From NCBI GenBank assembly GCA_050748045.1, contig JBOGIW010000612.1, positions 14,573-78,572 of the forward strand: 64,000 bases of DNA, in the 5' to 3' direction. Shown here piece by piece: positions 1,557 through 57,605 of the stretch (positions are counted from its first letter, which is position 1; each line of letters begins with the position of its first letter). Source of the stretch: Vicinamibacterales bacterium. Lineage in GTDB: Bacteria; Acidobacteriota; Vicinamibacteria; Vicinamibacterales; UBA2999. The notes beneath the pieces were generated by a model, which saw only the letters and a list, made by a program, of their open reading frames with translations, was not told where the DNA came from and ran no database searches. A program made the position numbers and the translations under genes.

Positions 1557-3134
1557 ATGCAGATGATCGCGCACCGCTCCGGTCTCGCGCGCCGCTCGCG
1601 AACGCTCGCCTTCCGCGCCACGCCTGCGGCGGCGTGCCTGGTCGCGCTGTCGGCAGCCGCCGGCGCGCAGGGGACGGCGACGCTGTCCCTCGAGCACGTG
1701 TTCACGGCATTGCTTCAGCACAACCCCGATATCGCGAAGGCCCAGGCGAGCGTGGACGTGGAGCGCGGTGCGCTCGTGCAGGCACGGTATCCGTTCGACC
1801 TGCGTCCGCGGGCGGCGCTGACGAACAGCCGCACGGTGCAGAGCGCGAACAGCGACGTCACACAGGCGGTGCCGTCATACGTCACGCTGGCCAGTCGGAC
1901 GAAGCTCGAGCTCACGAAGCTCTTTCGCTCGGGCATTCAGGTGGCTTCCGAGCTCGCCGTCGAGCGCACTTCGCCGGCCGAGCTCGGGGGGCCCACGCTC
2001 AACCGCCTCATCGCCGACGCCAGCGTGACTGTGCCGTTGATGCAGGGACGCGACGGCGGCCTGTTGGCGGCCGTGGAGCACGCCGCGGCCAAGAGCCATG
2101 CCGCCGCGAGGCAGACCCTGCGCTCCACGGCCGGAGCGGCGCTGTTCCGGGCCACGGTCGCGTACTGGGAGTATGTCGCCGCATTCCAGCGCGCCGCCAT
2201 CCACGGTGCCGCCGCACGCCGGTCGCGGCAGATCGTCGACGAGATCACGATCCTGATTCGCGCCGACGAGCGGCCGCGGTCGGACCTGGATTTGATGGTG
2301 GCCAATGCGGCCTCGAAGCAGGTGGCGCAGCTCCGCGCCGAGCGGCAGATCATCGACGCGCGAACGGCTCTCGCAGGGGCGATCGGGCTCGATCTCGATC
2401 AGGCAGCTACGCTCGCCGACCCAGGCACCGCGTTCCCCGAACAGGACGAGACGCGGCACACGCCTGCGGTCGACGAGATGATACGGGACGCCCTGGCGCG
2501 GCACGACGCGTTGGCGGCGGCGCAGACCCGTCGCGACAGTGCCCGGGCGCTGCGCGACGCCGCGGCGCGCCAGCTGAAACCGCGGGTCGACCTCCTCGTC
2601 GGGGCCGGCTACACGGGCCAGGCCGGTGGCGGCGGAATCGGGCGTCTCTTTCATCCGTTGTTCCACAACACGCTCGGGCCGAACGCATCGGTGCAGCTGC
2701 TGGTGGAGCCATCGGCGATCAACAGCCTCCTGCGCGGCACGCTGATCTCGTCGGACGCCTCCTATGTCCAGGCCGTGACTGCGGCCGACGCGCTCGCACG
2801 CGGCCTCCGCCTCCAGATTGCGAACGCCGCCGAAGGGCTGGCCAACAGCCGCGCGCAGCTGGATCGGACGCAGGAAGCGGTGGATCGCTCGCGCTTGGCG
2901 CTCGCCACCGTCCAGCGCACGTTCGAGCTCGGGAACGCGACACTTTTCGATCGGATTCTGGCCGAGGACACGCTCACGAATGCCGAACTGGCGGATCTCG
3001 GCGCCCGCCAGGAGCACGCGATGGCGCTCGCGGAGCTTCAATCCGCTCGCGGCCTCGTGGTCGAGTGGCGCGACGGCCACTTGGTGGCCGACGCCAGGCG
3101 GGTTCTGCGGGCGTCACGGGGAGACGGCCGGTGA
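1557..3134 (+). CDS. TolC-like outer membrane efflux protein
   Basis: Signal-like N-terminus MQMIAHRSGLARRSRTLAFRATPAAACLVALSAAAGAQG. ~520 aa of Ala/Leu/Arg/Gln-rich repeated coiled-coil-type sequence, as in outer membrane factor proteins. Its stop overlaps (GTGA) the start of the HlyD-like gene. Confidence 0.65.
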   Translation: MQMIAHRSGLARRSRTLAFRATPAAACLVALSAAAGAQGTATLSLEHVFTALLQHNPDIAKAQASVDVERGALVQARYPFDLRPRAALTNSRTVQSANSDVTQAVPSYVTLASRTKLELTKLFRSGIQVASELAVERTSPAELGGPTLNRLIADASVTVPLMQGRDGGLLAAVEHAAAKSHAAARQTLRSTAGAALFRATVAYWEYVAAFQRAAIHGAAARRSRQIVDEITILIRADERPRSDLDLMVANAASKQVAQLRAERQIIDARTALAGAIGLDLDQAATLADPGTAFPEQDETRHTPAVDEMIRDALARHDALAAAQTRRDSARALRDAAARQLKPRVDLLVGAGYTGQAGGGGIGRLFHPLFHNTLGPNASVQLLVEPSAINSLLRGTLISSDASYVQAVTAADALARGLRLQIANAAEGLANSRAQLDRTQEAVDRSRLALATVQRTFELGNATLFDRILAEDTLTNAELADLGARQEHAMALAELQSARGLVVEWRDGHLVADARRVLRASRGDGR

Positions 3135-4393
3135 GTCACACTTTTGCGTTTCGACGGATCGCCCTCGACCGCTTGTCGTCGGCAGACGATCTCGATCGGG
3201 TGCTTCGCGTCACGAGTCCGCGGAGCTGGTTGTTGCTGGCGGCGCTTTGCGGTCTCGTGGCCGCGGTGCTCGTGTGGAGCGTGGTCGCGGTCGTGCCGCT
3301 CAAAGTGTCGGGGCCCGGAATCCTGCTCAAGAGCGGCGGCATTTTCAGCGTCGTGTCGACGATCGGCGGCCGCGTGGCGGACGTGTCGGTCGGCGTCGGC
3401 GACACCGTCAAGGAAGGGCAGGTCGTGGCGCGCATTGCGCAGCCGGAAATCGTCGAGCGCCTGCGGGAGGCCCGCATCACGCTCACGAACCTGCGGGAGG
3501 CGCATGCGTTCCTCACGGCCGCCGGCGGCCGCGAGCTGTCGACACAGGAGGCGTCGCTGCGCCAGCAGGCCATGCACCTGGCCGACGCCATCAAGGCCGA
3601 CGAAAGACGGGCGGCGTTCTTTCGCGAGAAGGTCGTCTCCCAGCAGCAACTCGTGGCGGAGGGTCGCCTCGTGCGCCAGACCCTGATCAACACGCTCCAG
3701 GAGCTCGACGCGACGAACGAGCAGATCCGCATGCGTCGCGGCGAGCTCACGAAGATCGAGCTGCAGACGCTTCAGGCGCGATCGCAGCGGCAGGTCAGCC
3801 TGCAGAAGAGCGCGTTCGCGATTCGCGAGGCCGACCACGACGTCGCGCAGCTCGAACGCAGCCTCACCTCGGGCGCCGAGGTGCGATCGCCGTACACGGG
3901 GCGGATCATCGAAATGGCCGCGGAGCAGGGATCGATCGTGAACCGTGGCGAGGTGCTCTTCACGCTCGACCTGACGGGCCGAACGGTTGCGGCCCTCGAG
4001 GCGATGTTGTATGTCCCGGCCAAAGACGGCAAGCGCATCGCACCCGGCATGGTCGTGCAGATCGCGCCCGCCACGATCCGCCCGGAGGAGCACGGGTACC
4101 TGATCGGACAGGTCACATACGTCTCCGACCTGCCGGCCACCGCACGCGGAATGCTGCGCGTGCTCAAGAACGAGGAACTCGTGCGATCGTTGACCGGCGC
4201 GACGCCGCCGCACGAGGTGCGGGTGGATCTCCTTCCCGATCCATCGAGCGCGAGCGGGTACCGCTGGTCCTCCGCTCAGGGCCCGCCGACCAAAGTGCAG
4301 AGCGGAACGTTGTGCGACGCCGCGGTGATCGTCGAGTCGCGCCGCCCGATCGAGATGGTCGTGCCCTTCCTGCAGAGAGCCTCCGGGCTCTGA
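3131..4393 (+). CDS. HlyD-family membrane fusion protein, NHLM/NHLP bacteriocin-system secretion type (TIGR03794-like)
   Basis: Single N-terminal TM (SWLLLAALCGLVAAVLVWSVVAV), lipoyl-like hairpin (GGRVADVSVGVGDTVKEGQVVARI), long coiled coil. GTG 3131 was chosen because the upstream part of ORF 1634..4393 is the out-of-frame shadow of the TolC-like gene. Confidence 0.8.
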   Translation: MSHTFAFRRIALDRLSSADDLDRVLRVTSPRSWLLLAALCGLVAAVLVWSVVAVVPLKVSGPGILLKSGGIFSVVSTIGGRVADVSVGVGDTVKEGQVVARIAQPEIVERLREARITLTNLREAHAFLTAAGGRELSTQEASLRQQAMHLADAIKADERRAAFFREKVVSQQQLVAEGRLVRQTLINTLQELDATNEQIRMRRGELTKIELQTLQARSQRQVSLQKSAFAIREADHDVAQLERSLTSGAEVRSPYTGRIIEMAAEQGSIVNRGEVLFTLDLTGRTVAALEAMLYVPAKDGKRIAPGMVVQIAPATIRPEEHGYLIGQVTYVSDLPATARGMLRVLKNEELVRSLTGATPPHEVRVDLLPDPSSASGYRWSSAQGPPTKVQSGTLCDAAVIVESRRPIEMVVPFLQRASGL

Positions 4394-4417: not shown

Positions 4418-6634
4418 ATGCGCTTCGAAAGCCGACGTCCGTCTTTGCCGCCGTTCTGCCGGCGCTCCCGCGCGCCCCGACATCCGCGCGTGCGCGTGCC
4501 CTCCGTGCTGCAGATGGAAGCGGTGGAATGCGGCGCCGCGTCGCTGGCCATGATCCTCGCGCACTTCGGCCGCGTCGTGCCGCTCGAAGAGCTCCGCGTG
4601 GTCTGCGGCGTCTCGCGCGACGGCAGCCGCGCGCACAATATCCTCCGCGCGGGGCGGAGCTATGGGCTCCTCGGCAAGGCCTATCGCAAGGAGGTAGCCG
4701 ACCTGCGCCGAATCCCCACGCCGCTCATCGCGCACTGGAATTTCAACCACTTCCTCGTGATCGAGGGATTTCGCGGCAAGAAGGTATTCCTCAACGACCC
4801 CGCAACCGGCCCGCGGACCATCCGCGAGACCGAGCTCGACGCATGCTTCACCGGCGTGGTGCTCTCGTTCGATCGCAGTCCGACCTTCGAGGGCGGCGGG
4901 CAGCGGCACAGTGTCCTGCGCGCGCTCCGGAGGCGGCTCGCCGGCACGTCGCTGGCGCTCGCCTTCCTTCTCGTCGTCGGCCTCCTGTGGATGATGCTGG
5001 TGCTCGTCACACCGGCGTTCCTGACCATCTTCGTCGACGATGTGCTCATCGCCGGCATGCGCGATTGGGCCGTGCCGCTCAACCTCGCGATGCTCCTCAC
5101 GGGCGCCGGCCTCGCGCTGCTGACGTACGTCCAACAGCAGTACGTGTTGCGCCTCGAAACGAAGCTGGCGCTTGCGCAGTCGGCCCGGCTGCTCTGGCAC
5201 CTGCTCACGTTGCCGATCGGCTTCTTTCTCCAGCGCAGCGCCGGTGAGCTCGGCACGCGCGTCGCGGTGAACGAACGCATCGCGCAGGTCCTGTCGGTGG
5301 AGCTGGCGTCCGGCCTGCTCGGCGTGTGCGCCATCCTGCTGTACGTGACGTTCATGCTGGAGTACGACGCGTGGCTCACGCTCGTCATTCTGTTCACGAC
5401 GGCGCTGAACGTCGTGGCGGTGCAGGGCGCGGCGCGCCAGCGCGTGAACCTCAACCGCCGCCTGTCGCAGGACCAGGGAAAGATGGTCGGGACCGCCATG
5501 GGCGGACTGCAGTCGATCGAGACCCTGAAGGCGATGGGCGGCGAGTCGGACTTCTTCGCGCGCTGGTCGGGATATCAGACCAAGGTCCTCAGCGTTCAGC
5601 AGAGTCTCAAGCTCCAGACCGACCTGCTCGGCCTCGTGCCTCCGCTGCTCACGATGGTCAACACCATCCTCATCCTGGGCGTCGGCGGGCATCGTGTCAT
5701 GGACGGCACCCTCACCATCGGCATGCTCGTCGCCTTTCAGTCCTTCGTCTATCTCGTCGCCGTCCCCGCGCAGCAGGTCGTGGCACTCGGCAACAGTCTG
5801 CAGGAGGCCGCCGGACAGCTGGGACGTCTCGAAGACGTGGTGGACACCGTCCCCGACCCGCAGGTGCGCCTGCCGACGGCGGACGAGGCGACGGGTGGCA
5901 CCGAGAAGCTCGCCGGCCTCGTGGAGCTCAGGCAGGTCACGTTCGGATACAGCCCGCTCGACCCGCCGCTCATCGAGAATTTCAACCTGACGATCAGGCC
6001 CGGCCGCCGCGTGGCCCTCGTCGGTGGTTCGGGATCGGGAAAGAGCACCGTGGCGCGGCTGGTCTGCGGCCTCTACCGGCCGTGGAGTGGAGCGATCGCC
6101 TTTGACGGTGTGCCCCGCACCGAGCGCTCGCACCATGAGCTGAGCCACTCGTTCGCGGTCGTCGACCAGGATATCTTCCTCTTCGAAGGCACGGTCCGAG
6201 AAAACCTGACCCTCTGGGACACGACCGCGCCCGAGGCCGACGTCGTCCGCGCGGCTGCCGACGCCTGCATCCACGACGAGATCATGTCGCGAGCCGGCGG
6301 TTACAACAGTCGTGTGGACGAAGGCGGGCGCAACTTCAGCGGGGGCCAGGCGCAGCGGCTGGAGATTGCGCGCGCGCTCTGCAACAACCCGACCGTCCTC
6401 GTGCTCGACGAGGCGACGAGCGCGCTCGATCCCGCCACCGAACGCACGTTCGACGACAACCTGCGCCGCCGCGGGTGCACGTGCCTCATCATCGCGCACC
6501 GCCTCAGCACGATCCGTGACTGCGACGAGATCATCGTCCTCGAGGAGGGCCGGATCGTGCAGCGGGGCACCCACGACGCGATGAAGAGCGTGCCGGGACC
6601 CTACCAGCGTCTCATCGCCTCGGAGGAGTCGTGA
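4418..6634 (+). CDS. Peptidase-containing ABC transporter (PCAT): C39 double-glycine peptidase + TMD + NBD (TIGR03796-like)
   Basis: C39 catalytic Cys in LQMEAVECGAASLAMILAHFG and His in IAHWNFNHFLVIEG, then NDPATG. Six-helix TMD. Walker A GGSGSGKST, signature FSGGQAQRL, Walker B VLVLDEATSALD. Confidence 0.9.
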   Translation: MRFESRRPSLPPFCRRSRAPRHPRVRVPSVLQMEAVECGAASLAMILAHFGRVVPLEELRVVCGVSRDGSRAHNILRAGRSYGLLGKAYRKEVADLRRIPTPLIAHWNFNHFLVIEGFRGKKVFLNDPATGPRTIRETELDACFTGVVLSFDRSPTFEGGGQRHSVLRALRRRLAGTSLALAFLLVVGLLWMMLVLVTPAFLTIFVDDVLIAGMRDWAVPLNLAMLLTGAGLALLTYVQQQYVLRLETKLALAQSARLLWHLLTLPIGFFLQRSAGELGTRVAVNERIAQVLSVELASGLLGVCAILLYVTFMLEYDAWLTLVILFTTALNVVAVQGAARQRVNLNRRLSQDQGKMVGTAMGGLQSIETLKAMGGESDFFARWSGYQTKVLSVQQSLKLQTDLLGLVPPLLTMVNTILILGVGGHRVMDGTLTIGMLVAFQSFVYLVAVPAQQVVALGNSLQEAAGQLGRLEDVVDTVPDPQVRLPTADEATGGTEKLAGLVELRQVTFGYSPLDPPLIENFNLTIRPGRRVALVGGSGSGKSTVARLVCGLYRPWSGAIAFDGVPRTERSHHELSHSFAVVDQDIFLFEGTVRENLTLWDTTAPEADVVRAAADACIHDEIMSRAGGYNSRVDEGGRNFSGGQAQRLEIARALCNNPTVLVLDEATSALDPATERTFDDNLRRRGCTCLIIAHRLSTIRDCDEIIVLEEGRIVQRGTHDAMKSVPGPYQRLIASEES
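4496..4874 (+). other. C39 peptidase domain of the PCAT (approximate borders)
   Basis: The Cys/His/Asp-region motifs listed above all fall in this span. Confidence 0.8.
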
Positions 6635-9546
6635 TGTCGGTGTCGTCCTCCACCGTGCGCGCCGCTGGTCCGGGCGACGAGGCTGCCCGTTACGCCGCGG
6701 CACGGACGATGCTGCGCGGCGACGGCGGGTGGATCGTTCGCGCCGGCTACGCGGACATATTCGTGTCGCGGCGTGGTGCCAGCGAGTCACCCGGCCGGCG
6801 GCACCATCTGTTTCGCGCCGGCGAGCGATCGATCGTCTTTGGCCTGCCGGAGTCGTCCGACCTGCTGTTCGAGGCGATCGGGACCGAATCCACCGTCCTG
6901 GAGCCGGTCGGGCGCGAATGGATCGATGCGTGCGCGAACGACCCGCAGGCCGTCGCCATGACCCCGCGCGCCGTCGATCGATGGATCGACAATCTCTGCG
7001 AATACGTGGCGGCCGGCGTACCGCCCGCAAATTGCGCGTCCTACACGGCCGGGCAGGAAGCGACGGTCGACGCAGGTGGGTCCGTCCGTTCGGCACTTGG
7101 CGTGACCGTCGTCGAGGTCGTGAGCGGCGAGGCGGCGTTCTGCGGTTACGCGCGTGCGCGGTTGCAAACGGGCGATCTGGTCTCGGTATCGTGGCGCACG
7201 TGGCTGACGGCGACGGCGGAGAGCACGGTTCGGGTGAAGGCACTCGGCGAGGTCGTGAGCCGCGGCGATCTCTGGCGGGCGCTCGATACCCTTCACGAAC
7301 TCGCGGTCGAAGCCGTGCGGGTCCGCCTCGAACACATCCGTCAGGTGGAGCGCGACCGGCAGGGCGCCAAGTCGGTTGCCGCGCAGGCAGCCGGCGCCGG
7401 CGCGCTCGGAGAGATCGCGGCGGCGTTCCGCGAAGCGCCGGCCGAGGCTGTCGCGGCAACGTTCGCCGACGGCGCGGCCACGACGCAGGAAAGGCTGAAC
7501 GCCGCGTGCCGGCTGATCGCCGAGCGCCTGCGCATCCCGTTCGCGGCGCCGTCGACGACAGAGTACCGGACGCTCAAAGATGGCGTGGAGTCCGTGGCCC
7601 GCGCGTCGAGATTCCGCGCGCGGCAGGTGATGCTGACCGACGACTGGTGGCGCCACGACGAGGGTCCGCTCCTCGGCTCGTGGAAGGACAGCCAGCGTCC
7701 CGTCGCCCTGCTGCCTCGGAAGCGCTCGGGGTACGACGCGGTCGATCCCCACGACCGCTCGCGTCGGCCGGTCACGCTTCAGGTCGCCGCGCTCCTGGCG
7801 CCGACCGCATTCACCCTGTACCGTCCGTTTCGACCGGGCCGTGTCGGGGTATTCGAGCTCCTGCGCTTCGGCATGGCGGGATGCACGCGGGAGTTCGCGA
7901 CGATCGTGGCCACGGGTGCGCTTGCCGGCGTAATCGCCACCGGCGTTCCGATCGCAACCGGCGTCCTGATCAACTCCATCATTCCGAGCACGGATCGGCT
8001 GCAGCTCGTGCAGTGGACGGTGCTGCTTCTCGTGGGGGCGGCAGCAAGCGGGATGATCCAGGTCGCGCGCAGCATCTCGCTCATCCGCCTCGAGATGCGA
8101 CTCGCCTACGCCATTCAGTCGGCCGTGTGGGATCGGTTGATCAGCCTCCCCTCGGGCTTCTTCCGGCAATACGCCGCGGGCAATCTGGCCTCACGCGCGA
8201 TGGGGCTCGACAGCGTCCGCCAGACGCTGTCCGGCGCGACGATTCGCGCCGTCCTCGGCGGCGTCTTTTCGGTGTTCAACTTCGCGCTGCTGTTCTTCTA
8301 CGACGTTCGACTGGCGCTCTGTGCGGCGGTACTCGTCGCCACGGCAGTCCTGGTCTTCACCGGCTTGGCGTACTTTCAACGCGTGCAGCAGCGCGAAGTC
8401 GCCGCGATCCAGGCGAAGACGTCGGGGATCATCCTCCAGCTCCTCACCGGCATCCGCAAGCTGCGCGTCGCGGGAGCCGAGACGCGCGCCTTCGCGATCT
8501 GGGCCCGGCTGTTCAGCACGCAGCGACGCGCCCAGCTGCGGATTCGAGGCCTCGCCAACTGGCTGCGCGTGTTCACCGTCTCGTTCCCGCTCGTCGCGTA
8601 TGCGGCCCTCTTCACCGTGATCCTGACGACCCCGGGCGGCGGCGCGATACGCACCGGAGACTTCCTGGCGTTCCTCGCGGCCTTCACCGGTTGCATCGAC
8701 GCGACGATGATGACGGCGACCGCCGCCATCAACGCGTTGTCCGTCATCCCGCAGTATGAGATGTCCCGGCCCATTCTCGATGCGGAGCCGGAGGTCAGCG
8801 CCGGACAGGCGGACCCCGGTCCGCTCAACGGCGACATCACGTGCGACAAGATCGTGTTCCGGTATCGGCAGGAGGGGCCGCCGATCCTGAACGGCTTGTC
8901 GTTCAAGATCAAGGCCGGTGAGTTCGTGGCCTTCGTCGGCCCGTCCGGATCCGGCAAATCCACAGTGCTGCGACTGCTCCTCGGCTTCGAAAACGCCGAA
9001 TCGGGAGCGGTGTACTACGACGGCCGCGACTTCAGAGACCTCGACACCCGCGCCGTGCGCCGCCAGATCGGCGTCGTGCTGCAGAGCGGCCGGCTCATGC
9101 CCGGCGACATCTACACGAACATCGCGGGTTGCTCGTCGGCGTCGATGGACGAGGCATGGGCGGCCACACGGATGGCGGGGCTGGAGGACGACATCAGGCG
9201 CATGCCGATGGGCATGCACACCATGGTCACCGACGGCGGAGGCACATTGTCCGGAGGACAGCGCCAGCGGCTTCTGATCGCTCGCGCCGTTGTCGGCGCG
9301 CCGCGACTGCTGTTCTTCGACGAGGCGACGAGCGCGCTCGACAACCAGACGCAGGCGATCGTCAGTCAGAGCCTCGAGCGCCTGCGCGCCACGCGCGTGG
9401 TGATCGCGCATCGTCTCAGCACCATCGTCAACGCGGACCGGATCTTCGTCGTGGAGAAGGGGATCATCGTTCAAAGCGGCACGTACGACGAGCTCATGGC
9501 GCAGCCGGGGCTCTTCCGGGAGCTCGCCAGCCGGCAGTTGGCATGA
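6631..9546 (+). CDS. Second ABC transporter ATP-binding/permease protein of the NHLM bacteriocin system (TIGR03797-like); long N-terminal accessory domain, no peptidase catalytic Cys
   Basis: ~400-aa N-terminal non-peptidase domain, then TMD. Walker A GPSGSGKST, signature LSGGQRQRL, Walker B LLFFDEATSALD. The start overlaps the stop of the PCAT (GTGATG). Confidence 0.85.
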   Translation: MMSVSSSTVRAAGPGDEAARYAAARTMLRGDGGWIVRAGYADIFVSRRGASESPGRRHHLFRAGERSIVFGLPESSDLLFEAIGTESTVLEPVGREWIDACANDPQAVAMTPRAVDRWIDNLCEYVAAGVPPANCASYTAGQEATVDAGGSVRSALGVTVVEVVSGEAAFCGYARARLQTGDLVSVSWRTWLTATAESTVRVKALGEVVSRGDLWRALDTLHELAVEAVRVRLEHIRQVERDRQGAKSVAAQAAGAGALGEIAAAFREAPAEAVAATFADGAATTQERLNAACRLIAERLRIPFAAPSTTEYRTLKDGVESVARASRFRARQVMLTDDWWRHDEGPLLGSWKDSQRPVALLPRKRSGYDAVDPHDRSRRPVTLQVAALLAPTAFTLYRPFRPGRVGVFELLRFGMAGCTREFATIVATGALAGVIATGVPIATGVLINSIIPSTDRLQLVQWTVLLLVGAAASGMIQVARSISLIRLEMRLAYAIQSAVWDRLISLPSGFFRQYAAGNLASRAMGLDSVRQTLSGATIRAVLGGVFSVFNFALLFFYDVRLALCAAVLVATAVLVFTGLAYFQRVQQREVAAIQAKTSGIILQLLTGIRKLRVAGAETRAFAIWARLFSTQRRAQLRIRGLANWLRVFTVSFPLVAYAALFTVILTTPGGGAIRTGDFLAFLAAFTGCIDATMMTATAAINALSVIPQYEMSRPILDAEPEVSAGQADPGPLNGDITCDKIVFRYRQEGPPILNGLSFKIKAGEFVAFVGPSGSGKSTVLRLLLGFENAESGAVYYDGRDFRDLDTRAVRRQIGVVLQSGRLMPGDIYTNIAGCSSASMDEAWAATRMAGLEDDIRRMPMGMHTMVTDGGGTLSGGQRQRLLIARAVVGAPRLLFFDEATSALDNQTQAIVSQSLERLRATRVVIAHRLSTIVNADRIFVVEKGIIVQSGTYDELMAQPGLFRELASRQLA

Positions 9547-33970: not shown

Positions 33971-33975
33971 TCCCG

Positions 33976-49800: not shown

Positions 49801-52800
49801 CCACCGGCGCGCCACGCGAATACCCGGCGTCATTCGCCCAGGAGCGCATGTGGTTCCTGGAGCAGCTCGACACCGCGCAGTCCCACTACGGGATGTCCCG
49901 CGTGTGGCGCCTGCGCGGTCATCTGGATTGTGACGCCTTGTCGGCGAGCGTGGAAGCGCTGACGGCGCGGCACGAGATACTCCGCACGACATTTCGGATG
50001 CGACCCGACGGCTTGCGCCAGGTCGTACGAGATGACGCGGTGACGCTGGAGGTGGTGCCCGTCAGCGAGGCTTTGCTCGACGCGAGCGTCCGCGACATGA
50101 CCTCACGCCGATTCGATCTCGCGGTTGGTCCGCTCGCGCAGTTCAGGCTGTTGCGGCACTCCGACGAGCACTACGTGCTTGCGATCCTTCTCCATCACAT
50201 CGTGTGTGACGGCTGGGGCCTCGACGTGATGTTGCGTGAGCTCTCGGAGCAGTATGCCGCGCGGGTGCAGGGATGCGAGCCGGCCCTGCCGCCTCTGCCG
50301 ATGCAGTACGGCGACTACGCCGCGCAACAGCGGGAGGCATGGGCGAGCGGCCGACTGAACACCGATCTGGCGTTCTGGAGGCGCGAGCTCGATGGCGCGC
50401 CGACGGTCGTGAATCTGCCGGCCGACCGGCCGCGCCCGGCCGTCCGCAGCGGACGCGGCGCGCGCGAACGGCTGACCGTGCCCGCGGGTATCACGCGACG
50501 CTTACGGGCGACGGCGCAGCGCACGCGCACGACGCTGTTCATGGTGCTGGTGACGGCGTTCCACGCGCTCTTGAGCCGCTACTCCGGACAACGCGACATC
50601 GTCGTGGGCACACCCGTCGCCGGTCGCGCACGCCAAGCCACGGAGCCGCTCGTCGGCCTTTTCGTCAACACGCTTCCAGTACGTGCCACTCTCGCGGGGG
50701 ATCCGCCGTTTGACGCCCTTCTGCAACAGGTTCGGGAACGGCTATCCGAGAGTTACATGCACCAGGACGTGCCGTTCGAGAAGCTGGTTGCAGAACTGCA
50801 GATCGAGCGATCCACGGCCCATGCGCCGCTCGTGCAGGTGATGTGTGCCCTGCAGAACACGCCGAAGACGCTGTTCGCGCTGCCAGGCATCCGGATCGAG
50901 CGTATCGACGTACCGCTGGAGGTCGCGCGTCTCGATCTGACGCTTGCCCTCGAAGAGGTTGGCGATGCGCTCGCCGGCCGTATCGACTATGACCGCGATC
51001 TGTTCGACCCGGGAACCATCTCCCGATTGGCCGATCATTACGTGCGGCTGCTGGACGGAATCGCTACCGACCACAGGCGGCGCGTCTTGGCGCTTCCGCT
51101 CCTGAGCGAGGCTGAACGGACACACCTGCGGCACGCGACCCACGGTGCGCGTGTGACGCTGCCCGAAGCCGCGGGCATTCACGATGTCATCGCCGCGCAG
51201 GCCGCTCGAACGCCGGCGCGCCCTGCGCTGGCGTGCGACGACGCGTGTTTGACCTACGGCGAAATGAATGCCCGCGCGAACCAGCTCGCGCGCTTCCTGC
51301 AGCGTCACGGCGTCGGGCCTGATGTGACGGTCGCCATCTGCCTGGAGCGCGGCGTCGACGTGATCGTGGCGCTGCTCGCGGTGTTGAAAGCCGGTGGCGC
51401 GTATGTCCCGCTCGAATCGACCTTTCCCCGCGAGCGTCTGGCGTTCATGATCGCCGACTCCAGAAGTCGCGTCGTGATTACCAGGTCGCGCTTGCGCACG
51501 CCGCTCCCCGGTTCCATCGAGACGATCTGTCTCGACGAGGCGGCCGCCGACATCGCGCGGCAAGCGGCCGCGGAACCGAAGAGTGACGTACGGCCGGCAC
51601 ACCTCGCATACGTGATCTATACCTCCGGATCGTGCGGCCGTCCGAAGGGTGTAGCCGTCGAGCATCGCCAGATTCTGAACTACGTCGCCGCCGTGACGCG
51701 CGATCTGGCGTTTCCCTCGGGTCCCCTGGCGCTGGCGTCGACGATCGCTGCCGACCTCGGACACACGATGCTCTTTCCCGCGCTGTGCCACGGCAACACG
51801 CTGCACGTGCTGCCCGATGGCGTCATCCGCGACGGGCATGAGTGGCGTCGCTACTTCGATCGTCATGGCATCGCGGGACTGAAGATTACGCCGACTCACC
51901 TCAGGGCCTTGCTGGGACCGGCTCGCGACGCGAGCGCGTTGCCGAGCTGCCAGCTCGTGATTGGAGGAGAGGCGAGCACGTGGGACTGGATCGCGGAGCT
52001 CGAGCGGGCCAGCCCCGAATGCCGCATCTTCAATCACTACGGACCGACGGAGTGCACGGTCGGCGCAGTCGCGTGCGAGCTGTCGGCGATCGAGGAGCGC
52101 CACGGGCTCGTGCCGCTCGGCACGCCGCTCGCAAACACGACCGTGTACGTGCTCGACGACGCAGCGGAACTGTCGCCGACGTCGGTTCCGGGAGAGCTTT
52201 ACATCGGAGGTGACGGCGTTGCGCGGGGGTACCTCGGTCAGCCGTCGCTGACGGCGGAACGGTTCCTGCCCGATCCGTTCGCCTCCACACCGGGCGCGCG
52301 GCTGTATCGCACCGGGGATCGCGTGCGATGGCGCAGCGACCGCCGTCTCGAGTTCCTGGGACGTGTCGATGAGGAGCTGAAGGTGCGCGGGTTTCGGGTG
52401 CACCCGCGCGAGATCGAGTCGACACTGCGACAGCACGCGCACCTGAACGACGCGCTCGTCACCGCCCACATGGTGGATGGCCGGCAAGAGCTCGCCGCCT
52501 ACGTCGTCGCTGGCGCGCATGCGCCGATGAGTGAAGAGAGTCTGCGTGCGTGGCTCGCGGCACGGCTCCCGGACCACATGGTGCCTGCGACCGTCACGCT
52601 GCTTCCGGCATGGCCCCTGACGGCGAATGGCAAGCTCGATCGGCGGGCCCTGCCGGTACCGGAACCGCGGGCGCGCCGCGAACGAGCGTACGACCCGCCG
52701 CGGACGCCCGTCGAGGCGATACTCGCCGACATCTGGCAGGACGTTCTGGGCCTTCCTCGTGTTGGGATTTACGACAACTTCTTCGAGCTCGGCGGCGACT

Positions 52801-54350
52801 CGATCCACAGCATCCAGGTGATTACACGCGCCGCCCAACGCGGCCTCGAGCTCGTGCCGCGCGACGCCTTCGAGCACCAGACCGTGGCGGCCCTCGCCGC
52901 CGGATTGCGCCCGCGACCGGCGATACGCATCGAAGACGCGCCGCTCTCGGGCATCGTGCCGCTTACACCCGTTCAGCGCTGGTTCTTCGCGCAGGACCTG
53001 GCGTGTCCACACCACTACAACCAGTCACTGCTGCTCGAGCCGCGCGAAACGCTCGACGCTGACGTGCTGCGCCGCGCATTCGACGCCGTGTACAGGCACC
53101 ACGACGCGTTCGGGATGCGCTACGAGCGCGATGGCAGCGTCTGGCGGCAATGCGCCCGGCTCGATCATGGCGTGGCCCCGTACGAGATCGTCGACCTCGG
53201 ACGCCTTCCAGCCGCCGCCCAGCCTAACGCCGTCAAATCGATTGCAGCAGACCGTCAGTCGCAACTTCACATCCACACCGGCCCGCTTGCACAATTCACG
53301 CTGTTCGAGCGGGGAGCCGGGCGCCCGCAGCGGCTGCTGCTCATCGCGCATCACCTGATTGTCGACGGCGTGTCGTGGCGAATCCTCGCCGAGGACCTCG
53401 ACACCGCGTACCGTCAGCTTCGGCACGGCGACAGCGTCGATCTGCCCCCGAGAACGTCGTCACTGTGCACGTGGGGGGCGGCGCTCGACCGGTACGCTCG
53501 GAGCGCCGAACACGTGTCGGAGATCCCGGTCTGGCAGGAGTCGGCGTGGCGCGGCCGCCAACGGATGCTGCCCAGGGATGGCCCCGGCGGCGTGAACACC
53601 GAGGCGTCGGCTCGGTACGTGACGGTTCGGCTGTCGGTGCCGGAGACCGAGCAGCTGCTTCGCGACGCGCCGCGCGCGGCCCACGCTCGGGTACCGGAGG
53701 TGCTGCTCGCAGCGCTCTGGCAGGCTGTTGCGGAATGGGCCGGTCACGAGGAGTTCGGCGTCATGCTCGAGGGTCATGGCCGCGAAGTCCTCGAGCCAGG
53801 GCTCGATCTCTCACGCACGATCGGCTGGTTCACCGCGACGCGGCCGGTCCGGCTGGATCTGCGGCGAGCCGCAACTGCGGCGCAGCGCCTGAGGACCGTG
53901 AGGAGCGAGCTGGGGCGCGTGGCGCATGGCGGCATCGGCTACGGCTGCTGGCGCTACCCGGCGGCGTCCCCTGGTACGGCCGGCGTGGCTGACGCTGCGC
54001 CCGAGCTGACGCTCAACTATCTTGGCCAATTCGATCAGACGTTTGGGGGGCACACGCTCTGGCGGGTCGTATCCGAGCCTCAGGGACCGGTGCACGCGCC
54101 CGTGAATCTCAGGTCGCGAGTGCTGCAGATCAACGGACGCGTGCTCCACGGAAGGCTCGAGTTGAGCTGGACGTACTCGTCGCATCTGCACCGGCGCAAG
54201 ACGATCGCGCGCCTCGCCGAGCGGCATCTCACGGCAGTGCGATCGCTCGTGCGCGAATGCCTGGCTTCGGCCGCTCCGGCGTCGAGCGACGTCGACCCCG
54301 ACGTTACCGACCACGACCTGTTGACGATTTCACGCGCTCTCGGCCGCTGA
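49797..54350 (+). CDS. NRPS module C-A-T-E (Asp-like code, epimerising)
   Basis: C: ASFAQERMWF/HHIVCDGWG. A: YTSGSCGRPKG; code approx DLTKVGHVGK (Asp). T: FFELGGDSIHSIQ (E-coupled T motif). E: HHLIVDGVSWRIL. Confidence 0.95.
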   Translation: MTTGAPREYPASFAQERMWFLEQLDTAQSHYGMSRVWRLRGHLDCDALSASVEALTARHEILRTTFRMRPDGLRQVVRDDAVTLEVVPVSEALLDASVRDMTSRRFDLAVGPLAQFRLLRHSDEHYVLAILLHHIVCDGWGLDVMLRELSEQYAARVQGCEPALPPLPMQYGDYAAQQREAWASGRLNTDLAFWRRELDGAPTVVNLPADRPRPAVRSGRGARERLTVPAGITRRLRATAQRTRTTLFMVLVTAFHALLSRYSGQRDIVVGTPVAGRARQATEPLVGLFVNTLPVRATLAGDPPFDALLQQVRERLSESYMHQDVPFEKLVAELQIERSTAHAPLVQVMCALQNTPKTLFALPGIRIERIDVPLEVARLDLTLALEEVGDALAGRIDYDRDLFDPGTISRLADHYVRLLDGIATDHRRRVLALPLLSEAERTHLRHATHGARVTLPEAAGIHDVIAAQAARTPARPALACDDACLTYGEMNARANQLARFLQRHGVGPDVTVAICLERGVDVIVALLAVLKAGGAYVPLESTFPRERLAFMIADSRSRVVITRSRLRTPLPGSIETICLDEAAADIARQAAAEPKSDVRPAHLAYVIYTSGSCGRPKGVAVEHRQILNYVAAVTRDLAFPSGPLALASTIAADLGHTMLFPALCHGNTLHVLPDGVIRDGHEWRRYFDRHGIAGLKITPTHLRALLGPARDASALPSCQLVIGGEASTWDWIAELERASPECRIFNHYGPTECTVGAVACELSAIEERHGLVPLGTPLANTTVYVLDDAAELSPTSVPGELYIGGDGVARGYLGQPSLTAERFLPDPFASTPGARLYRTGDRVRWRSDRRLEFLGRVDEELKVRGFRVHPREIESTLRQHAHLNDALVTAHMVDGRQELAAYVVAGAHAPMSEESLRAWLAARLPDHMVPATVTLLPAWPLTANGKLDRRALPVPEPRARRERAYDPPRTPVEAILADIWQDVLGLPRVGIYDNFFELGGDSIHSIQVITRAAQRGLELVPRDAFEHQTVAALAAGLRPRPAIRIEDAPLSGIVPLTPVQRWFFAQDLACPHHYNQSLLLEPRETLDADVLRRAFDAVYRHHDAFGMRYERDGSVWRQCARLDHGVAPYEIVDLGRLPAAAQPNAVKSIAADRQSQLHIHTGPLAQFTLFERGAGRPQRLLLIAHHLIVDGVSWRILAEDLDTAYRQLRHGDSVDLPPRTSSLCTWGAALDRYARSAEHVSEIPVWQESAWRGRQRMLPRDGPGGVNTEASARYVTVRLSVPETEQLLRDAPRAAHARVPEVLLAALWQAVAEWAGHEEFGVMLEGHGREVLEPGLDLSRTIGWFTATRPVRLDLRRAATAAQRLRTVRSELGRVAHGGIGYGCWRYPAASPGTAGVADAAPELTLNYLGQFDQTFGGHTLWRVVSEPQGPVHAPVNLRSRVLQINGRVLHGRLELSWTYSSHLHRRKTIARLAERHLTAVRSLVRECLASAAPASSDVDPDVTDHDLLTISRALGR
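52930..54347 (+). other. Epimerisation domain (approximate)
   Basis: PLTPVQRWFF..HHLIVDGVSWRIL..EGHGRE..NYLGQF. Confidence 0.85.
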
Positions 54351-54389: not shown

Positions 54390-57300
54390 ATGCCTACAGC
54401 GGATCTCGAATCTGTCTACGCGTTGTCTCCTCTGCAGGAGGGGATGCTGTTCCATGCGCTCTACCTGCCCGACGCCGGACTCGACGTCTCGCAGTCGGTG
54501 TGGATGCTCGACGGCAGATTGAACGTCGATGCGCTCAAACGCGCGTGGCGCACGACCCTCGCGCGACACGCCGTGCTGCGTACCTCCTTCCATTGGGAGG
54601 GTGTGCACAAGCCGATGCAGGCCGTGAGTCGCGAGGTGGATGCGCCGTGGATCGAAGACGACTGGCGGCGAGCCGGCGAAACCGAGCGGCTCCAGAAGCT
54701 CGACGCCTTTCTCGACGCCGATTTGAAGACCGCGTTTCATCTGAATCGCGCGCCGCTCGCCCGCCTGGCGCTCTTCCGCACTGGAGACGAGCGTCACCAG
54801 CTGGTGTTGACCACACATCACCTCGTGCTCGATGGCTGGTCGAAGCGGATCGTCCTCGGGGACCTGCTGCACTTCTATGACGCCGCATCGACGGGCCGCG
54901 GCGCGACGCTTCCTCCGGCTCCGCCCTTCAGTGAACACGTCCGCTGGCTCGCCTGCCAGGACCTCGGAAAGGCGGAAGCCTACTGGCGCCGCGTGCTGCA
55001 CGGCTGTCAAGCGACGCACATGGCGCCTCCGGCTCTCGCGGGCACGGGCGACCACCATGTATCGGAAGCCGTGGCAATCCTCTCCGATACAGACAGCACC
55101 CTCGTTCGAGAGGCCGCACGTCGCGAGCGGGTGACGATGAACACGCTCGCCCTTGGCGCGTATGCGCTGATGGTGTCCCGCCATGCGGGGGCGAACGAGG
55201 CGGTGTTCGGCACCGCCGTATCCGGCCGTCCTGCAGCGCTCCCCGATGTCGAGCGGCGTGTCGGTATGTTCGTCAACACCCTTCCGGTGCGCGTGGGCGT
55301 GCCGCCCGGCGATTGTGTGGGTGACTGGTTGCGCGCCCTACAGCGCAGCCAGGCAGAGGCACGCGAGTACGAGTACACGCCGCTCTCAGCGGTTCACGCC
55401 TGGTGCCGTGTTCCGTCGCGCGAGTCGCTGTTCGACACGGTGCTCGCGTTCCAGAACTATCCCGATTTGCTGCGCACATCGACGGGAATCCGGATGCGAC
55501 CGGACCGGTCGCGTCAGCGAACCACCTATCCGCTGGTGATCTTCGTCACGCCGTCGACGGCGATACACGTTAAGGCGCTGTACAAACCCGATCGGTTTAC
55601 CCGAGCGGCGGTCGACACGCTGCTGTCAGACTATACGCGACTGCTGCGCGAGGTGGCCGGCGGCAGCGATCGCGTGCTGGCGACCGTGCCGCACGCCGCC
55701 TGCACCGAACAGCGGGCGATCGAGCGATGGAACGCGACCGATCGCCCCCTCCCGCCGTGGCGAGGGCTCCACGACGTCGTCGCCGCGTGGGCCGAGCGCG
55801 ACCCGGCGCGCTGTGCGGTGATCGCGGGTGACGAGCGTCTCACCTACGCTGAGTTGTCGCGGCGGGCGGATCGGCTCGCGAGCCGGCTGCGGGTGTGTGG
55901 CGTCGGTCCTGAAGTTCGGGTGGCGGTGTGCGTCACCCACAGCATCGATGTCGCGGTCGTCCCGCTCGCGATCTGGAAGGCCGGCGGCGCCTACGTCCCG
56001 CTCGATCCCGAATACCCGGCCGATCGCATCCGGCTCATGCTGCAGGACTGCAGGCCTCGCCTCATCGTGACGCGCGACGCGTTCCGGCACTCGTTGCCAT
56101 CGGACCACGGTGCAGAGGTACTGAACCTCGATCACGACTCCTGGACGGTGAGCACGGAGGCGTCTGACCCACCCGCCAGCGCCCATGACATCGACAACCT
56201 GGCGTACATCATCTACACATCCGGATCGACCGGAGCGCCGAAAGGCGTCGCGGTCACACATCGTGGCCTCGTCAACGTTGCCGCCGCGCAGGCCGGCTTT
56301 GGCCTCACTCGCGACGACCGTGTGTTGCAGTCGTCATCACCGAGCTTCGACGGCTGCATCTTCAACGTGTCGCTGGCCTTTTCGGCTGGTGCGTCTCTCG
56401 CGCTCGCTCCCGATCGAGGGCGACCCTTCATCACGGAGCTGCTGCGGCTGCTGGTCGAAGGCCAGGTCACGGTGGCGGTGCTTTCGCCAACCGTTCTTTC
56501 CGCCGTGCCGAGAGAGCCGCTGCCGCACCTGCGCGTCGTGATGGCCGCCGGCGAGGAGTGCGCGCTGGAGCTTGCACGCTACTGGGCGCGGGGACGTATC
56601 TTCTGGAATCTCTACGGTCCGACGGAACAGACCATCTGGTCAACCGCACAACGGATCTCCGTCGACGCCGACGTTGCGCCAATCGGCGGCCCCATCGCGA
56701 ATACCCGCGCGTATGTGTTGGACGCAAACCTGCAACCGGTTGCAATCGGCAGGACGGGAGAGCTGTACCATTCCGGTGTCGGAACGGCGCGCGGCTATCA
56801 CGGACGTCCGGATCTGACGGCGGAGAGGTTCGTACCGAATCCGTTCAGCGCGTCCGGTGGTTCACGCTTGTACCGGACCGGCGACCGCGTGAAATGGCGC
56901 GCCGACGGCACCCTCCACTTCGTCGGACGCGCCGATCACCAGGTCAAGCTGCGCGGCTACCGAGTGGAGCTCGGCGAAGTCGAGACAGCGCTCCGCCGTC
57001 ACCCGATGGTGGAGGATGCCGTAGCCATCGTGCATGGACGCGACGGCGACGCCCAGCTCGTCGCCTACGTTGTCTGCCGGGAGGGTGCCTTCGAGATGGA
57101 CGACGTTCGGAGCTGGCTCGCCGGCCGTCTGCCGCACTACATGGTTCCAGGTATCGTGACGAGGCTCGCCGAATGGCCGCTGACCCCCAGCGGCAAGCTC
57201 GATCGCTCGAAGCTGCCGGATCCTCGCAGGCGGGCAGCGCCCCTCGAGAGCGGCGCCGGGGCGGAGACCGCGCTCGAGCGGGTGATCAGCGGCATTTGGT

Positions 57301-57605
57301 CCGAGATCCTCGGGGTCGACGCGGTTGGAGTCGACGGCAACTTCTTCGAGCTCGGCGGCAACTCGGTGCTGGCCATCCGCGTCTGCAGCAAGCTTCGCGA
57401 GCGGTGCGCGAGCGGGCTACCGCTGGTGACGCTCTTTCAGTACCCCACCATCCGATCGCTCGCGCGCCACCTAGGAGACGGCCGCGCGAGCGAAGGCACT
57501 GCCGTCACGTCAGACGATTCGGCAAGAGCGCGTGGCGGCATGCGACGAGCGCGGCGGATCGGCCGCCAGCGCGGAGCGATCGCGCGCGACGAGCGGGGCG
57601 CCTAA
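54390..57605 (+). CDS. NRPS module (D)C(L)-A-T with a basic C-terminal tail, no TE
   Basis: C: YALSPLQEGMLFHAL/HHLVLDGWS (the type that follows E domains). A: YTSGSTGAPKG; code approx DGFVMALIWK (unassigned). T: FFELGGNSV. ~45-aa Arg-rich tail. Confidence 0.95.
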   Translation: MPTADLESVYALSPLQEGMLFHALYLPDAGLDVSQSVWMLDGRLNVDALKRAWRTTLARHAVLRTSFHWEGVHKPMQAVSREVDAPWIEDDWRRAGETERLQKLDAFLDADLKTAFHLNRAPLARLALFRTGDERHQLVLTTHHLVLDGWSKRIVLGDLLHFYDAASTGRGATLPPAPPFSEHVRWLACQDLGKAEAYWRRVLHGCQATHMAPPALAGTGDHHVSEAVAILSDTDSTLVREAARRERVTMNTLALGAYALMVSRHAGANEAVFGTAVSGRPAALPDVERRVGMFVNTLPVRVGVPPGDCVGDWLRALQRSQAEAREYEYTPLSAVHAWCRVPSRESLFDTVLAFQNYPDLLRTSTGIRMRPDRSRQRTTYPLVIFVTPSTAIHVKALYKPDRFTRAAVDTLLSDYTRLLREVAGGSDRVLATVPHAACTEQRAIERWNATDRPLPPWRGLHDVVAAWAERDPARCAVIAGDERLTYAELSRRADRLASRLRVCGVGPEVRVAVCVTHSIDVAVVPLAIWKAGGAYVPLDPEYPADRIRLMLQDCRPRLIVTRDAFRHSLPSDHGAEVLNLDHDSWTVSTEASDPPASAHDIDNLAYIIYTSGSTGAPKGVAVTHRGLVNVAAAQAGFGLTRDDRVLQSSSPSFDGCIFNVSLAFSAGASLALAPDRGRPFITELLRLLVEGQVTVAVLSPTVLSAVPREPLPHLRVVMAAGEECALELARYWARGRIFWNLYGPTEQTIWSTAQRISVDADVAPIGGPIANTRAYVLDANLQPVAIGRTGELYHSGVGTARGYHGRPDLTAERFVPNPFSASGGSRLYRTGDRVKWRADGTLHFVGRADHQVKLRGYRVELGEVETALRRHPMVEDAVAIVHGRDGDAQLVAYVVCREGAFEMDDVRSWLAGRLPHYMVPGIVTRLAEWPLTPSGKLDRSKLPDPRRRAAPLESGAGAETALERVISGIWSEILGVDAVGVDGNFFELGGNSVLAIRVCSKLRERCASGLPLVTLFQYPTIRSLARHLGDGRASEGTAVTSDDSARARGGMRRARRIGRQRGAIARDERGA

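Follow-up and report, generated by a model that had tools for sequence, protein, structure and literature searches.

Roughly 2000 nonribosomal peptide synthetase (NRPS) and polyketide synthase (PKS) clusters encode LanB-like enzymes for which no precursor peptide was found, and some of these enzymes are fused to thiolation (T) domains (PMC10769383, PMC11212132). The closest described system is the sna (threopeptin) cluster of Stackebrandtia nassauensis, in which SnaE adds threonine to the free carboxylate left by a ureido-forming condensation (C) domain (Yu & van der Donk 2024, PMC11212132). In the cystobactamid pathway, CysS, a B12 enzyme of the radical S-adenosylmethionine (SAM) type, extends an O-methyl group of an NRPS building block in its pantetheinyl-bound form (PMC12846815). 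This study concerns a locus of an uncultured soil acidobacterium (Vicinamibacterales) in which a LanB-like enzyme and a B12 radical-SAM enzyme are both encoded among NRPS/PKS genes, next to a complete NHLP-type peptide exporter. The stretch analyzed, hereafter the window, is 64,000 nt of contig JBOGIW010000612.1. With moderate confidence, the locus is read here as one NRPS/PKS cluster that has probably recruited parts from families of pathways for ribosomally made, post-translationally modified peptides (RiPPs), and as neither a RiPP cluster nor a ribosomal/nonribosomal hybrid.

The window resembles the sna cluster in having a stand-alone LanB-like enzyme without an elimination domain, in an NRPS/PKS setting and with no precursor or scaffold peptide, the likeness to SnaE being one of format and cluster setting. 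There are also clear differences. The sna cluster is actinobacterial, whereas the window is acidobacterial and holds a B12 radical-SAM enzyme and an NHLP exporter in addition. Furthermore, sna needs a ureido-forming C domain with the motif EHHxxHDG, and no such motif is present in the window, where the seven condensation/epimerization-type motifs read THH, LHH, FHH, AHH, LHH, AHH and THH.

The preliminary description of this DNA offered two explanations for the mixture of gene types, a genuine ribosomal/nonribosomal hybrid pathway or RiPP tailoring enzymes recruited to carrier-bound substrates. The first of these depended on a gene at 12143-12382 (plus strand), which had been taken for a precursor peptide with a double-glycine (GG) leader. 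This gene encodes an MbtH-like NRPS accessory protein (PF03621, E 4e-19 and 68 bits, cut-off 27) and not a GG precursor. It bears the typical NxExQxSxWP-type motif, adjoins NRPS genes, has the ribosome-binding site AGGAGGAG and has an 83% match in L004, a fragment of a syntenic second locus that is described below. None of the nine non-coding gaps of the window holds a plausible precursor, the small open reading frames (ORFs) there being Arg-rich noise. When seven NHLP/GG-leader precursors from the exporter loci L005, L006 and L012 were used as tblastn queries, the window gave chance-level matches only, the best of which (E 0.004) fell within the TolC-like gene but on the opposite strand, and L004 gave nothing, and the same queries recovered precursors in about 17 other exporter loci. 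The 30 window proteins were scanned against Pfam and NCBIfam, and the Pfam scan detected no elimination domain (Lant_dehydr_C/SpaB_C), LanC, YcaO or other RiPP core enzyme. Likewise, no LanA precursor, no LanC cyclase and no precursor beside the radical-SAM gene were found within the window. With its sole candidate precursor reassigned and no RiPP core enzyme at hand, a genuine hybrid is not what the window points to.

The LanB-like gene (35795-38359, plus strand) encodes a stand-alone enzyme of the LanB glutamylation fold, of the small LanB/PEARL-like kind (PF04738, E 2.4e-22). The 854-residue protein has the Lant_dehydr_N domain only and ends soon after the region that aligns with TbtB and GodF, with no further domain in its AlphaFold2 model (pLDDT, or predicted local distance difference test score, 87.6). 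In a Foldseek search with this model the best matches were TbtB (E 4e-27) and GodF (3e-22), at 16-18% identity, followed by MibB, NisB (to 2e-19) and MadB. A phmmer search of PDB sequences with the protein gave no match; besides the predicted structure, only a family profile did so (E 9e-19). TbtB (from thiomuracin synthesis) and GodF (goadsporin) likewise stand alone and are the best solved-structure matches, but they act on a ribosomal precursor in company with a separate elimination protein, and neither of these is present in the window. The peptide aminoacyl-tRNA ligases (PEARLs) TglB, BhaB and AmmB of the 3-thiaglutamate and ammosamide pathways also share the glutamylation-type fold and the lack of an elimination domain, and the Glu-x-Arg motif near their C-terminus resembles one in the window enzyme. 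However, PEARLs extend the C-terminus of an adjacently encoded ribosomal scaffold peptide, and the window encodes none.

In PEARLs, a Glu-x-Arg pair close to the C-terminus is reported to serve ATP-dependent carboxylate activation (Glu801/Arg803 in TglB, Glu813/Arg815 in BhaB; PMC11962472). A (Y/F)T(S/C)E(L/F)R motif is invariant in 25 members of the LanB-like family, where it lies 12-17 residues from the C-terminus; in the window enzyme it reads YTSEFR, with E840 and R842 of 854 residues, and lies beyond the part that aligns with TbtB. This E-x-R resembles the Glu-x-Arg of TglB and BhaB in spacing and position, and may be its counterpart. The same cluster can nevertheless be read with a different chemistry for this enzyme, in which it would be a glutamylase that uses Glu-tRNA to modify the hydroxyl group of a Ser or beta-hydroxy residue on a carrier protein, with a dehydro-amino acid or a glutamyl ester as the outcome. 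The best structure and profile matches are to the glutamylating enzymes TbtB, GodF, MibB and NisB, suitable hydroxyls could come from the Ser-like module and from the TauD-family enzyme as a beta-hydroxylase, and there is no ureido domain to supply a free carboxylate; the matches and the Ser-module hydroxyls count against the ligase role preferred here. On the other hand, no elimination domain or protein is encoded in an array that is 98.6% coding, the invariant E-x-R lies beyond the TbtB/GodF-aligning region and is positioned like the PEARL residues for ATP-dependent carboxylate activation (PMC11962472), and the sole characterized NRPS-associated member is a ligase (PMC11212132). Taken together, a glutamylase on carrier-bound hydroxyls appears unlikely, although it is one of the two better-surviving alternatives.

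The distribution of the LanB-like family places most of its inspected loci in nonribosomal surroundings. A family-alignment scan of GTDB genomes found at least 530 LanB-like loci, mostly in Acidobacteriota, Ktedonobacteria, Sorangium and actinomycetes. Among the best 80 of these, NRPS genes lie within 10 kb in 56, a MacB-type exporter is present in 23, MbtH in 16 and a radical-SAM homologue in 3, and the pairing of radical-SAM and LanB-like genes was seen again in L102, L122 and L141. The ureido-forming motif occurs in only 2 of the 80 loci (L123 and L151). Several homologues are fused to assembly-line domains, as T-LanB (P0006, P0012) or C-T-LanB (P0016). As a separate observation, two LanB-like paralogues stand in tandem in an acidobacterial metagenome-assembled genome (MAG; L141, 7783-12502) and in Sorangium sp. 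So ce134 (L158, 9999-14980).

In the window itself, the LanB-like gene has a clear partner. It overlaps by 4 nt (ATGA at 38356) with a gene for an adenylation (A)-T didomain protein (38356-40137, plus strand; Pfam), as the preliminary description stated when it called the two genes coupled, and the same pairing is found in L001, another fragment of the second locus, and in the P0002 contig. The A domain lacks Asp235, the residue that normally binds the alpha-amino group, having Ala at that position (A4 region SMIAGSSWD) where the L001 homologue has Val. This suggests that the substrate is probably a keto acid, a hydroxy acid or another non-alpha-amino acid. Directly before the LanB-like gene, a small ORF (35460-35765, plus strand) encodes a single-pass membrane protein. 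Its N-terminus is conserved and acidic, it has one hydrophobic helix, and its tail varies. Only five homologues were found among 1.84 billion representative proteins, and this family, called MxDWE here, shares the N-terminus MxDWE...ERRxFRQELQWS. In each of the three closest loci, the small ORF lies before the LanB-like gene. It was considered as a PEARL scaffold peptide and judged an unlikely one, given its membrane helix and variable C-terminus. In L168, an NHLP-exporter locus without a LanB gene, an MxDWE homologue (12547-12879, 110 aa) is encoded immediately upstream of a NusG paralogue.

The radical-SAM enzyme gives a similar picture. The gene at 26600-28591 (plus strand) encodes a B12-binding radical-SAM C-methyltransferase of the TIGR03975 family (504 bits against a cut-off of 282), with a weak PF02310 match, so the preliminary description was right to place it in a RiPP-type maturase family. 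Its radical-SAM cluster motif, CWWGAKAHCTFC (residues 287-298), has the spacing Cx7Cx2C, which is conserved in its homologues; the canonical motif is CxxxCxxC. The closest homologues are P0242 (67%, from the syntenic contig) and P0244 (58%), followed by thousands at about 50%, many of which are named 'RiPP maturation radical SAM'. However, all five of the close homologues that were inspected (P0242 and P0244, and P0247, P0251 and P0281 at about 50%) lie inside NRPS/PKS clusters, which makes that name misleading for this branch of TIGR03975. A C-A(Methyltransf_21)-T module immediately precedes the homologue in L085, which is from a deltaproteobacterial MAG, and in L166 the homologue comes directly after a 75-aa stand-alone carrier protein (7736-7963). 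Tandem pairs of B12 radical-SAM genes were also noted in two NRPS loci (L085, 8001-11998; L167, 6277-9890), and together with the L166 carrier protein they hint at carrier-bound substrates and repeated methylation. More distant homologues, at 28-35% identity, adjoin NHLP exporters.

When these findings are set against described enzymes, the window protein is like the PoyB/PoyC-type C-methyltransferases in matching the TIGR03975 model, but differs in that its close homologues occur in NRPS/PKS clusters and not beside NHLP precursors. With CysS it has in common an NRPS setting beside a SAM-dependent O-methyltransferase function, which is a shared logic and not close kinship. A phmmer search of PDB chains gave no match at E 0.01 or better, and the structure of a CysS homologue (PMC12846815, 2026) was possibly not in that copy of the PDB. 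The second explanation of the preliminary description, the recruitment of RiPP tailoring enzymes to carrier-bound substrates, is therefore supported from both sides, by the T and C-T fusions and NRPS loci of the LanB-like family and by the cluster setting of the five radical-SAM homologues.

The organization of the array and its conservation in a relative suggest that these genes belong together. Frame analysis based on G+C at third codon positions placed all coding from position 1 to about 57.7 kb on the plus strand and coding beyond that on the minus strand. With start codons picked beside the preceding stop, 27 plus-strand genes were counted between 3 and 57605, including one that is partial (3-305), and 98.6% of positions 1-57605 is coding. 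The junctions are shorter than 60 nt in 24 of 26 cases, nine being overlaps, and two longer gaps precede 12143 (350 nt, 11793-12142) and 35460 (137 nt). Thus the co-directional, tightly packed array of the preliminary description stands, and all eight of the overlaps that it cited are present, each of them a 4-nt NTGA start/stop overlap (GTGA at 3131, 6631 and 29767; TTGA at 33967; ATGA at 38356, 40134, 46597 and 49797). Its claim that RiPP-type genes are interleaved with the assembly line holds for the radical-SAM and LanB-like genes, which lie inside the NRPS part, but not for the exporter block, which is contiguous at the 5' edge. Some gene limits also had to be changed: the dioxygenase is a TauD-family enzyme, but its end at 11998 came from reading another frame and is truly at 11792, and the limits given near 43.9-46.6 kb are better replaced by 43909-45336 (PurF-like) and 45344-46600 (FmdA-like). 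The G+C content of the window is 62-70%, with a drop to 0.62-0.63 past 58 kb.

The second locus consists of a 73-kb Joint Genome Institute (JGI) contig (3300041965) and the NCBI fragments L001 and L004; it retains nearly all of the array, and its proteins are 50-83% identical to those of the window. It begins with a NusG paralogue, two small ORFs, a LOG-like gene and an activator, followed by the TolC-like, HlyD, ABC1, ABC2, binding-protein and TauD genes. The order continues with MbtH, a type II thioesterase, an NRPS with a thioesterase (TE), an acyl carrier protein (ACP)-aminotransferase-C-A-methyltransferase-T protein, radical-SAM, the small ORF, LanB-like, A-T, the 293-aa-type protein, ketosynthase (KS)-acyltransferase (AT) and PurF-like genes. 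The conservation of the combination in this second locus indicates that it is not accidental. In L004 the NusG paralogue is of the RfaH/LoaP/UpxY-like kind and is followed by the two small ORFs, which are paralogous (46% identical) and have no database match (1177-2802). RfaH/LoaP-like NusG paralogues support long biosynthetic operons. The equivalent region of the window contig lies just upstream of position 1. The two small ORFs were also considered as precursors and rejected, as they have no Pfam or NCBIfam match, no GG site and no similarity to NHLP peptides.

The exporter set is genuine, as the preliminary description had it, with all three NHLP family models matched above the NCBI cut-offs. 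On the plus strand, it comprises a TolC-like outer-membrane efflux protein (1557-3134; PF02321, E 3.5e-19), an NHLP bacteriocin system HlyD-type secretion protein (3131-4393; TIGR03794, 355 bits, cut-off 156), the NHLP export ABC transporter ABC1 with an N-terminal C39 peptidase domain (4418-6634; TIGR03796, 1020 bits, cut-off 853), the permease/ATPase subunit ABC2 (6631-9546; TIGR03797, 889 bits, cut-off 709, residues 287-970) and a periplasmic binding protein of the Leu/Ile/Val-binding type (9559-10722; PF13458, E 2.6e-46). The catalytic Gln, Cys, His and Asp of the C39 domain are kept in ABC1, and the motifs LQMEAVECG, NHFLV and NDP are identical to those of L012, a locus with GG precursors. 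The N-terminal extension of ABC2 (286 residues, window positions 6631-7490) falls outside TIGR03797 and has no Pfam match; it is well conserved across six relatives, with, for example, an invariant RRHHL. The whole ABC2 protein has a 100% identical match in a Vicinamibacterales MAG at NCBI.

The surroundings of this cassette vary among its relatives. A survey of 80 metagenomic exporter loci, retrieved with an ABC2 alignment, found NRPS genes adjoining the cassette in L004 only. The preliminary description had proposed a search of relatives for co-occurrence; exporter, NRPS, radical-SAM and LanB-like genes occur together in the second locus, and no NRPS genes adjoin the cassette in the remainder of this survey. 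The next-closest cassettes have 57-61% identity in ABC2. Their neighbors include a LanM with a 63-aa precursor in L005, a class III/IV-type synthetase (RamC/kinase/LanC-type) with a 69-aa ORF in the JGI 3300078620 contig, and peptidases with a NusG paralogue in L168. The binding protein accompanies the cassette in L004-L006, L010, L012, L016, L030 and L168. In both L005 (14077-21464) and JGI 3300078620, the genes after the cassette encode a TonB-dependent-receptor-like protein with a CarboxypepD_reg domain and the lanthipeptide system. The varied neighbors indicate that the cassette, with its binding protein and often a sigma-54 activator, is a portable module. Judged from these gene neighborhoods, it has probably been joined to the NRPS cluster here for export of the product, while it serves lanthipeptide or NHLP peptides in relatives. 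It is like the NHLP/Nif11 export systems in matching the three family models and keeping the C39 residues, the cassette being common to NHLP, GG-leader and lanthipeptide loci, but it differs from them in that no cognate precursor was found in the window and NRPS genes flank it.

Two units side by side would account for part of this evidence. In that case a RiPP export module, with its precursor and maturases elsewhere, would abut an independent NRPS/PKS cluster whose own LanB-like and radical-SAM enzymes are adapted to NRPS work. The C39 domain keeps its catalytic residues, the closest cassettes outside the lineage (57-61%) serve lanthipeptide clusters with visible precursors, and about 17 exporter loci carry NHLP precursors. 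A MacB/FtsX-type permease (57930-60374, minus strand; Pfam), typical of LanB-like NRPS loci, is encoded just downstream in the lower-GC flank. Moreover, the 350-nt gap between TauD and mbtH holds a non-coding block, TTTTTCGTCCCC ... GATACAGT (12010-12066, plus strand), at about 80-130 nt before mbtH. An alignment with L004 shows this block to be conserved, and it may be a promoter or operator within the array, dividing the array into at least two transcription units. However, the adjacency and order of the genes are kept in the relative at 54-76% identity, in an array that starts at the NusG paralogue, and neither gene calls nor tblastn found a GG/NHLP gene in that relative. In addition, TauD is a tailoring enzyme of a kind typical for NRPS clusters and is encoded on the exporter's side of this gap, and the genes are all co-directional and tightly packed. 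On balance, independence of the two parts is improbable, to about the same degree as the glutamylase chemistry considered above.

Less probable still is a working role for the C39 ABC exporter, its intact peptidase included, in the nonribosomal pathway itself. As the genes stand, it might cleave and export a nonribosomal product, or process an unrecognized ribosomal peptide that is encoded outside the window or is the MxDWE protein, but both versions together seem distinctly doubtful. The first, if true, would be a new type of prodrug release, and a ribosomal peptide that is methylated, LanB-extended and joined to the NRPS/PKS chain would make the locus a true ribosomal/nonribosomal hybrid. 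In such a hybrid, the peptide could come from outside the window or be the small MxDWE protein. The radical-SAM enzyme would methylate it, the LanB-like enzyme would extend or dehydrate it, a protein such as the weakly GNAT-like one would join it to the NRPS/PKS product, and the C39 ABC transporter would cleave and export it. This scheme would fit the intact protease, the winged-helix element kept in the LanB-like model (about residues 290-347, with a weak family-profile match to PqqD, E 0.13), the small ORF conserved before the LanB-like gene in the three closest loci, the weak GNAT signal of the 293-aa protein and the existence of RiPP/fatty-acyl hybrids (PMC8784127), but it is very unlikely given that basic residues flank the hydrophobic helix of the small ORF, that the tail of this ORF varies and has no conserved GG site, that its L168 homologue lies beside a NusG paralogue without a LanB gene, that neither the window nor L004 yielded an NHLP/GG peptide, that close homologues of both enzymes occur in NRPS loci without RiPP genes and fused or adjacent to carrier proteins, and that such recognition elements are reported dispensable in PEARLs (PMC11962472).

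Several points weigh against the reading of one NRPS/PKS cluster with recruited parts. The strongest is that the intact catalytic residues of the C39 domain argue for an existing leader-peptide substrate, and none was found. A precursor could be encoded in another part of the genome, or in those 14.7 kb of the 78.7-kb source contig that the window does not include. The MacB-type exporter that usually neighbors LanB-like NRPS loci is also present, so a second exporter seems redundant. The conserved block in the 350-nt gap means that the exporter part and the NRPS part may be separate transcription units. The sole proven LanB-in-NRPS logic, that of SnaE, does not carry over directly because the window has no ureido-forming condensation domain, and the proposed equivalence of the E-x-R motif to that of TglB and BhaB is one of position and spacing. 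The A-domain specificities used below, which depend on an alignment to GrsA and on published specificity codes, are tentative. More generally, the whole interpretation is drawn from sequence, predicted structure and literature comparison.

The assembly line itself has 8 adenylation domains, 6 condensation domains and 1 KS-AT, and all of its genes are on the plus strand. A KS-AT protein without an ACP (41054-43867; Pfam, 61% match in L001) and a hybrid protein with the architecture ACP-aminotransferase-C-A-T (20589-26579; Pfam), the A domain of which has an FkbM-type methyltransferase insert, would form its start, and the architecture of the hybrid is the same in the syntenic contig. The terminating NRPS is C-A-T-C-A-T-TE (13188-20564; Pfam and motifs) and is preceded by a type II thioesterase (12387-13157; PF00975, E 3e-39). 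There are three further NRPS proteins, a C-A-T module (46597-49800; Pfam), a C-A-T module followed by a second C/epimerization-type domain (49797-54350; Pfam and motifs) and another C-A-T module (54390-57605; Pfam), and a stand-alone A-(methyltransferase)-T protein (29767-32634; Pfam). Stachelhaus-type positions were read from an alignment to GrsA. The codes DVWHISLIDK (20589), DIFHFGLIIK (29767), DAWQFGLIDK (46597) and DLTKVGHVGK (49797) we take to be Ser-like, hydroxyphenylglycine (Hpg)-like, Gln-like and Asp-like, respectively. The second A domain of the 13188 gene presumably has an Asn-like code, and the first gave no assignment. The code of the 54390 gene, DGFVMALIWK, gave no assignment.

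Based on this order of domains, a route can be proposed for the preferred reading. The A-T protein at 38356 would load a non-alpha-amino acid starter, KS-AT (41054) would extend it onto the ACP at the N-terminus of the 20589 hybrid, and the aminotransferase domain of that hybrid would make a beta-amino group, as in MycA/iturin-type hybrids. The chain would then pass through the Ser-like module with its FkbM-type methyltransferase, the Gln-like module, the Asp-like module with the following epimerase-like domain and the unassigned module to C-A-T-C-A-T-TE. The window shares with MycA/iturin-type systems the KS-AT, ACP, aminotransferase and C-A-T logic that leads to a beta-amino acyl unit. It differs from them in that the system is split over distant genes (41054-43867 and 20589-26579), in having no fatty-acyl ligase loading domain, with the A-T protein without Asp235 as the likely loader, and in the FkbM-type methyltransferase insert in the A domain. 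Since the KS and six C domains account for seven condensations and there are eight units, one C-less loading protein (29767 or 38356) has no obvious condensation partner. It is possible that this is where the LanB-like ligase acts.

By analogy with SnaE, the LanB-like enzyme would probably use ATP and an aminoacyl-tRNA to form an amide bond at a free carboxylate, beyond thioester chemistry, and its substrate would most likely be a carrier-bound starter or intermediate. The radical-SAM enzyme probably methylates an unactivated carbon of the carrier-bound residue of the Ser module. Its gene comes immediately after the Ser/FkbM-methyltransferase module in the window, and likewise in the syntenic contig and the deltaproteobacterial cluster. 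One possibility is a CysS-like variant, in which it would extend an O-methyl group. The exporter block, from the sigma-54 activator to the binding protein, would probably export the NRPS product.

The array has further plus-strand genes. The TauD/TfdA-family Fe(II)/2-oxoglutarate dioxygenase (10782-11792, alternative start 10719; PF02668, E 3.9e-48, frame plot, 69% match in L004) is probably an amino-acid beta-hydroxylase. Downstream of the radical-SAM gene are genes for a member of the 4-hydroxyphenylpyruvate dioxygenase/hydroxymandelate synthase family (28619-29770; TIGR01263, 370 bits, cut-off 277), a class I/II pyridoxal-phosphate-dependent aminotransferase that is MppQ/PdxR-like (32648-33970; PF00155, E 1.7e-30, NCBIfam) and an amidohydrolase-family metallohydrolase (33967-35322; PF01979, E 2.9e-27), whose counterpart in the P0002 contig is likewise followed by the small ORF and the LanB-like gene. 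The gene after the A-T didomain encodes a conserved 293-aa protein (40134-41015; 53% match in L001) that resembles GNAT enzymes only weakly (E 0.0013 for PF13508, which is below the cut-off) and for which a single-sequence AlphaFold2 model was unusable (pLDDT 32). A full-length paralogue of PurF-type glutamine amidophosphoribosyltransferase (43909-45336; TIGR01134, 439 bits, above the equivalog cut-off of 350) is encoded next to an acetamidase/formamidase-family, FmdA-like protein (45344-46600; PF03069, E 2.5e-19). Both are kept in the syntenic contig, and there they are separated by two further genes, one for a second radical-SAM protein and one for a phosphoenolpyruvate-utilizing enzyme.

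At the 5' edge of the window are the 3' end of a LOG/lysine-decarboxylase-like gene (3-305, plus strand; 54% match in L004), which precedes the regulator in the syntenic locus too and has a counterpart in the 73-kb JGI contig that matches Pfam LDcluster4/Lysine_decarbox, and a sigma-54-dependent activator with an AAA+ domain (278-1531, plus strand; PF00158, E 1e-55, 64% match in L004). Only about 48 residues precede the AAA+ domain of the activator, which leaves no room for a receiver or other sensory domain. A scan for sigma-54 promoters (TGGCAC-N5-TTGC, at most 2 mismatches) gave 14 matches against 19.8 expected, with none in any gap between genes. The predicted RNA fold of the 350-nt gap was not significant (z -1.3), Rfam gave no match at gathering thresholds, and promoter and terminator scans over 1-60000 found weak terminator-like sites only, all within coding sequence and at about chance level. 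In the minus-strand flank (57930-63775), an ABC ATPase (62999-63775; PF00005, E 5e-33) is likely the partner of the MacB-type permease, which, going by its recurrence beside LanB-like loci, may serve clusters of this type as their usual exporter. This flank also holds a possible small gene (about 60553-60900) and a 2-oxoglutarate-Fe(II) oxygenase gene.

The preliminary description did not recognize the combination of genes as a described system, and this is only partly the case. LanB-like enzymes in NRPS/PKS clusters were published in 2023 and 2024 (PMC10769383, PMC11212132), and the LanB part of this locus is of the kind described in 2024, whereas the literature yielded no description of an NHLP exporter with NRPS clusters or of a TIGR03975 enzyme in them. 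Three features are new here: no ureido domain is present, the radical-SAM enzyme belongs to an NRPS-associated branch of TIGR03975, and the peptidase of the exporter is intact. The preferred reading does not account for a complete NHLP exporter that keeps its leader peptidase beside an NRPS cluster with no visible substrate.

The natural products of uncultured soil acidobacteria, to which the present host belongs, are almost unknown. A sizeable branch of TIGR03975 appears to work in NRPS/PKS pathways, and as a consequence automated genome mining will give such clusters the wrong label, RiPP or hybrid. LanB-like enzymes have a known function in only one NRPS cluster, where it is ureido-dependent, and neither the window nor 78 of the 80 related loci have that domain. 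With the overlapping A-T gene as a clear partner, the cluster described here could show the role of the LanB-like enzyme in most of the roughly 2000 clusters that encode one.

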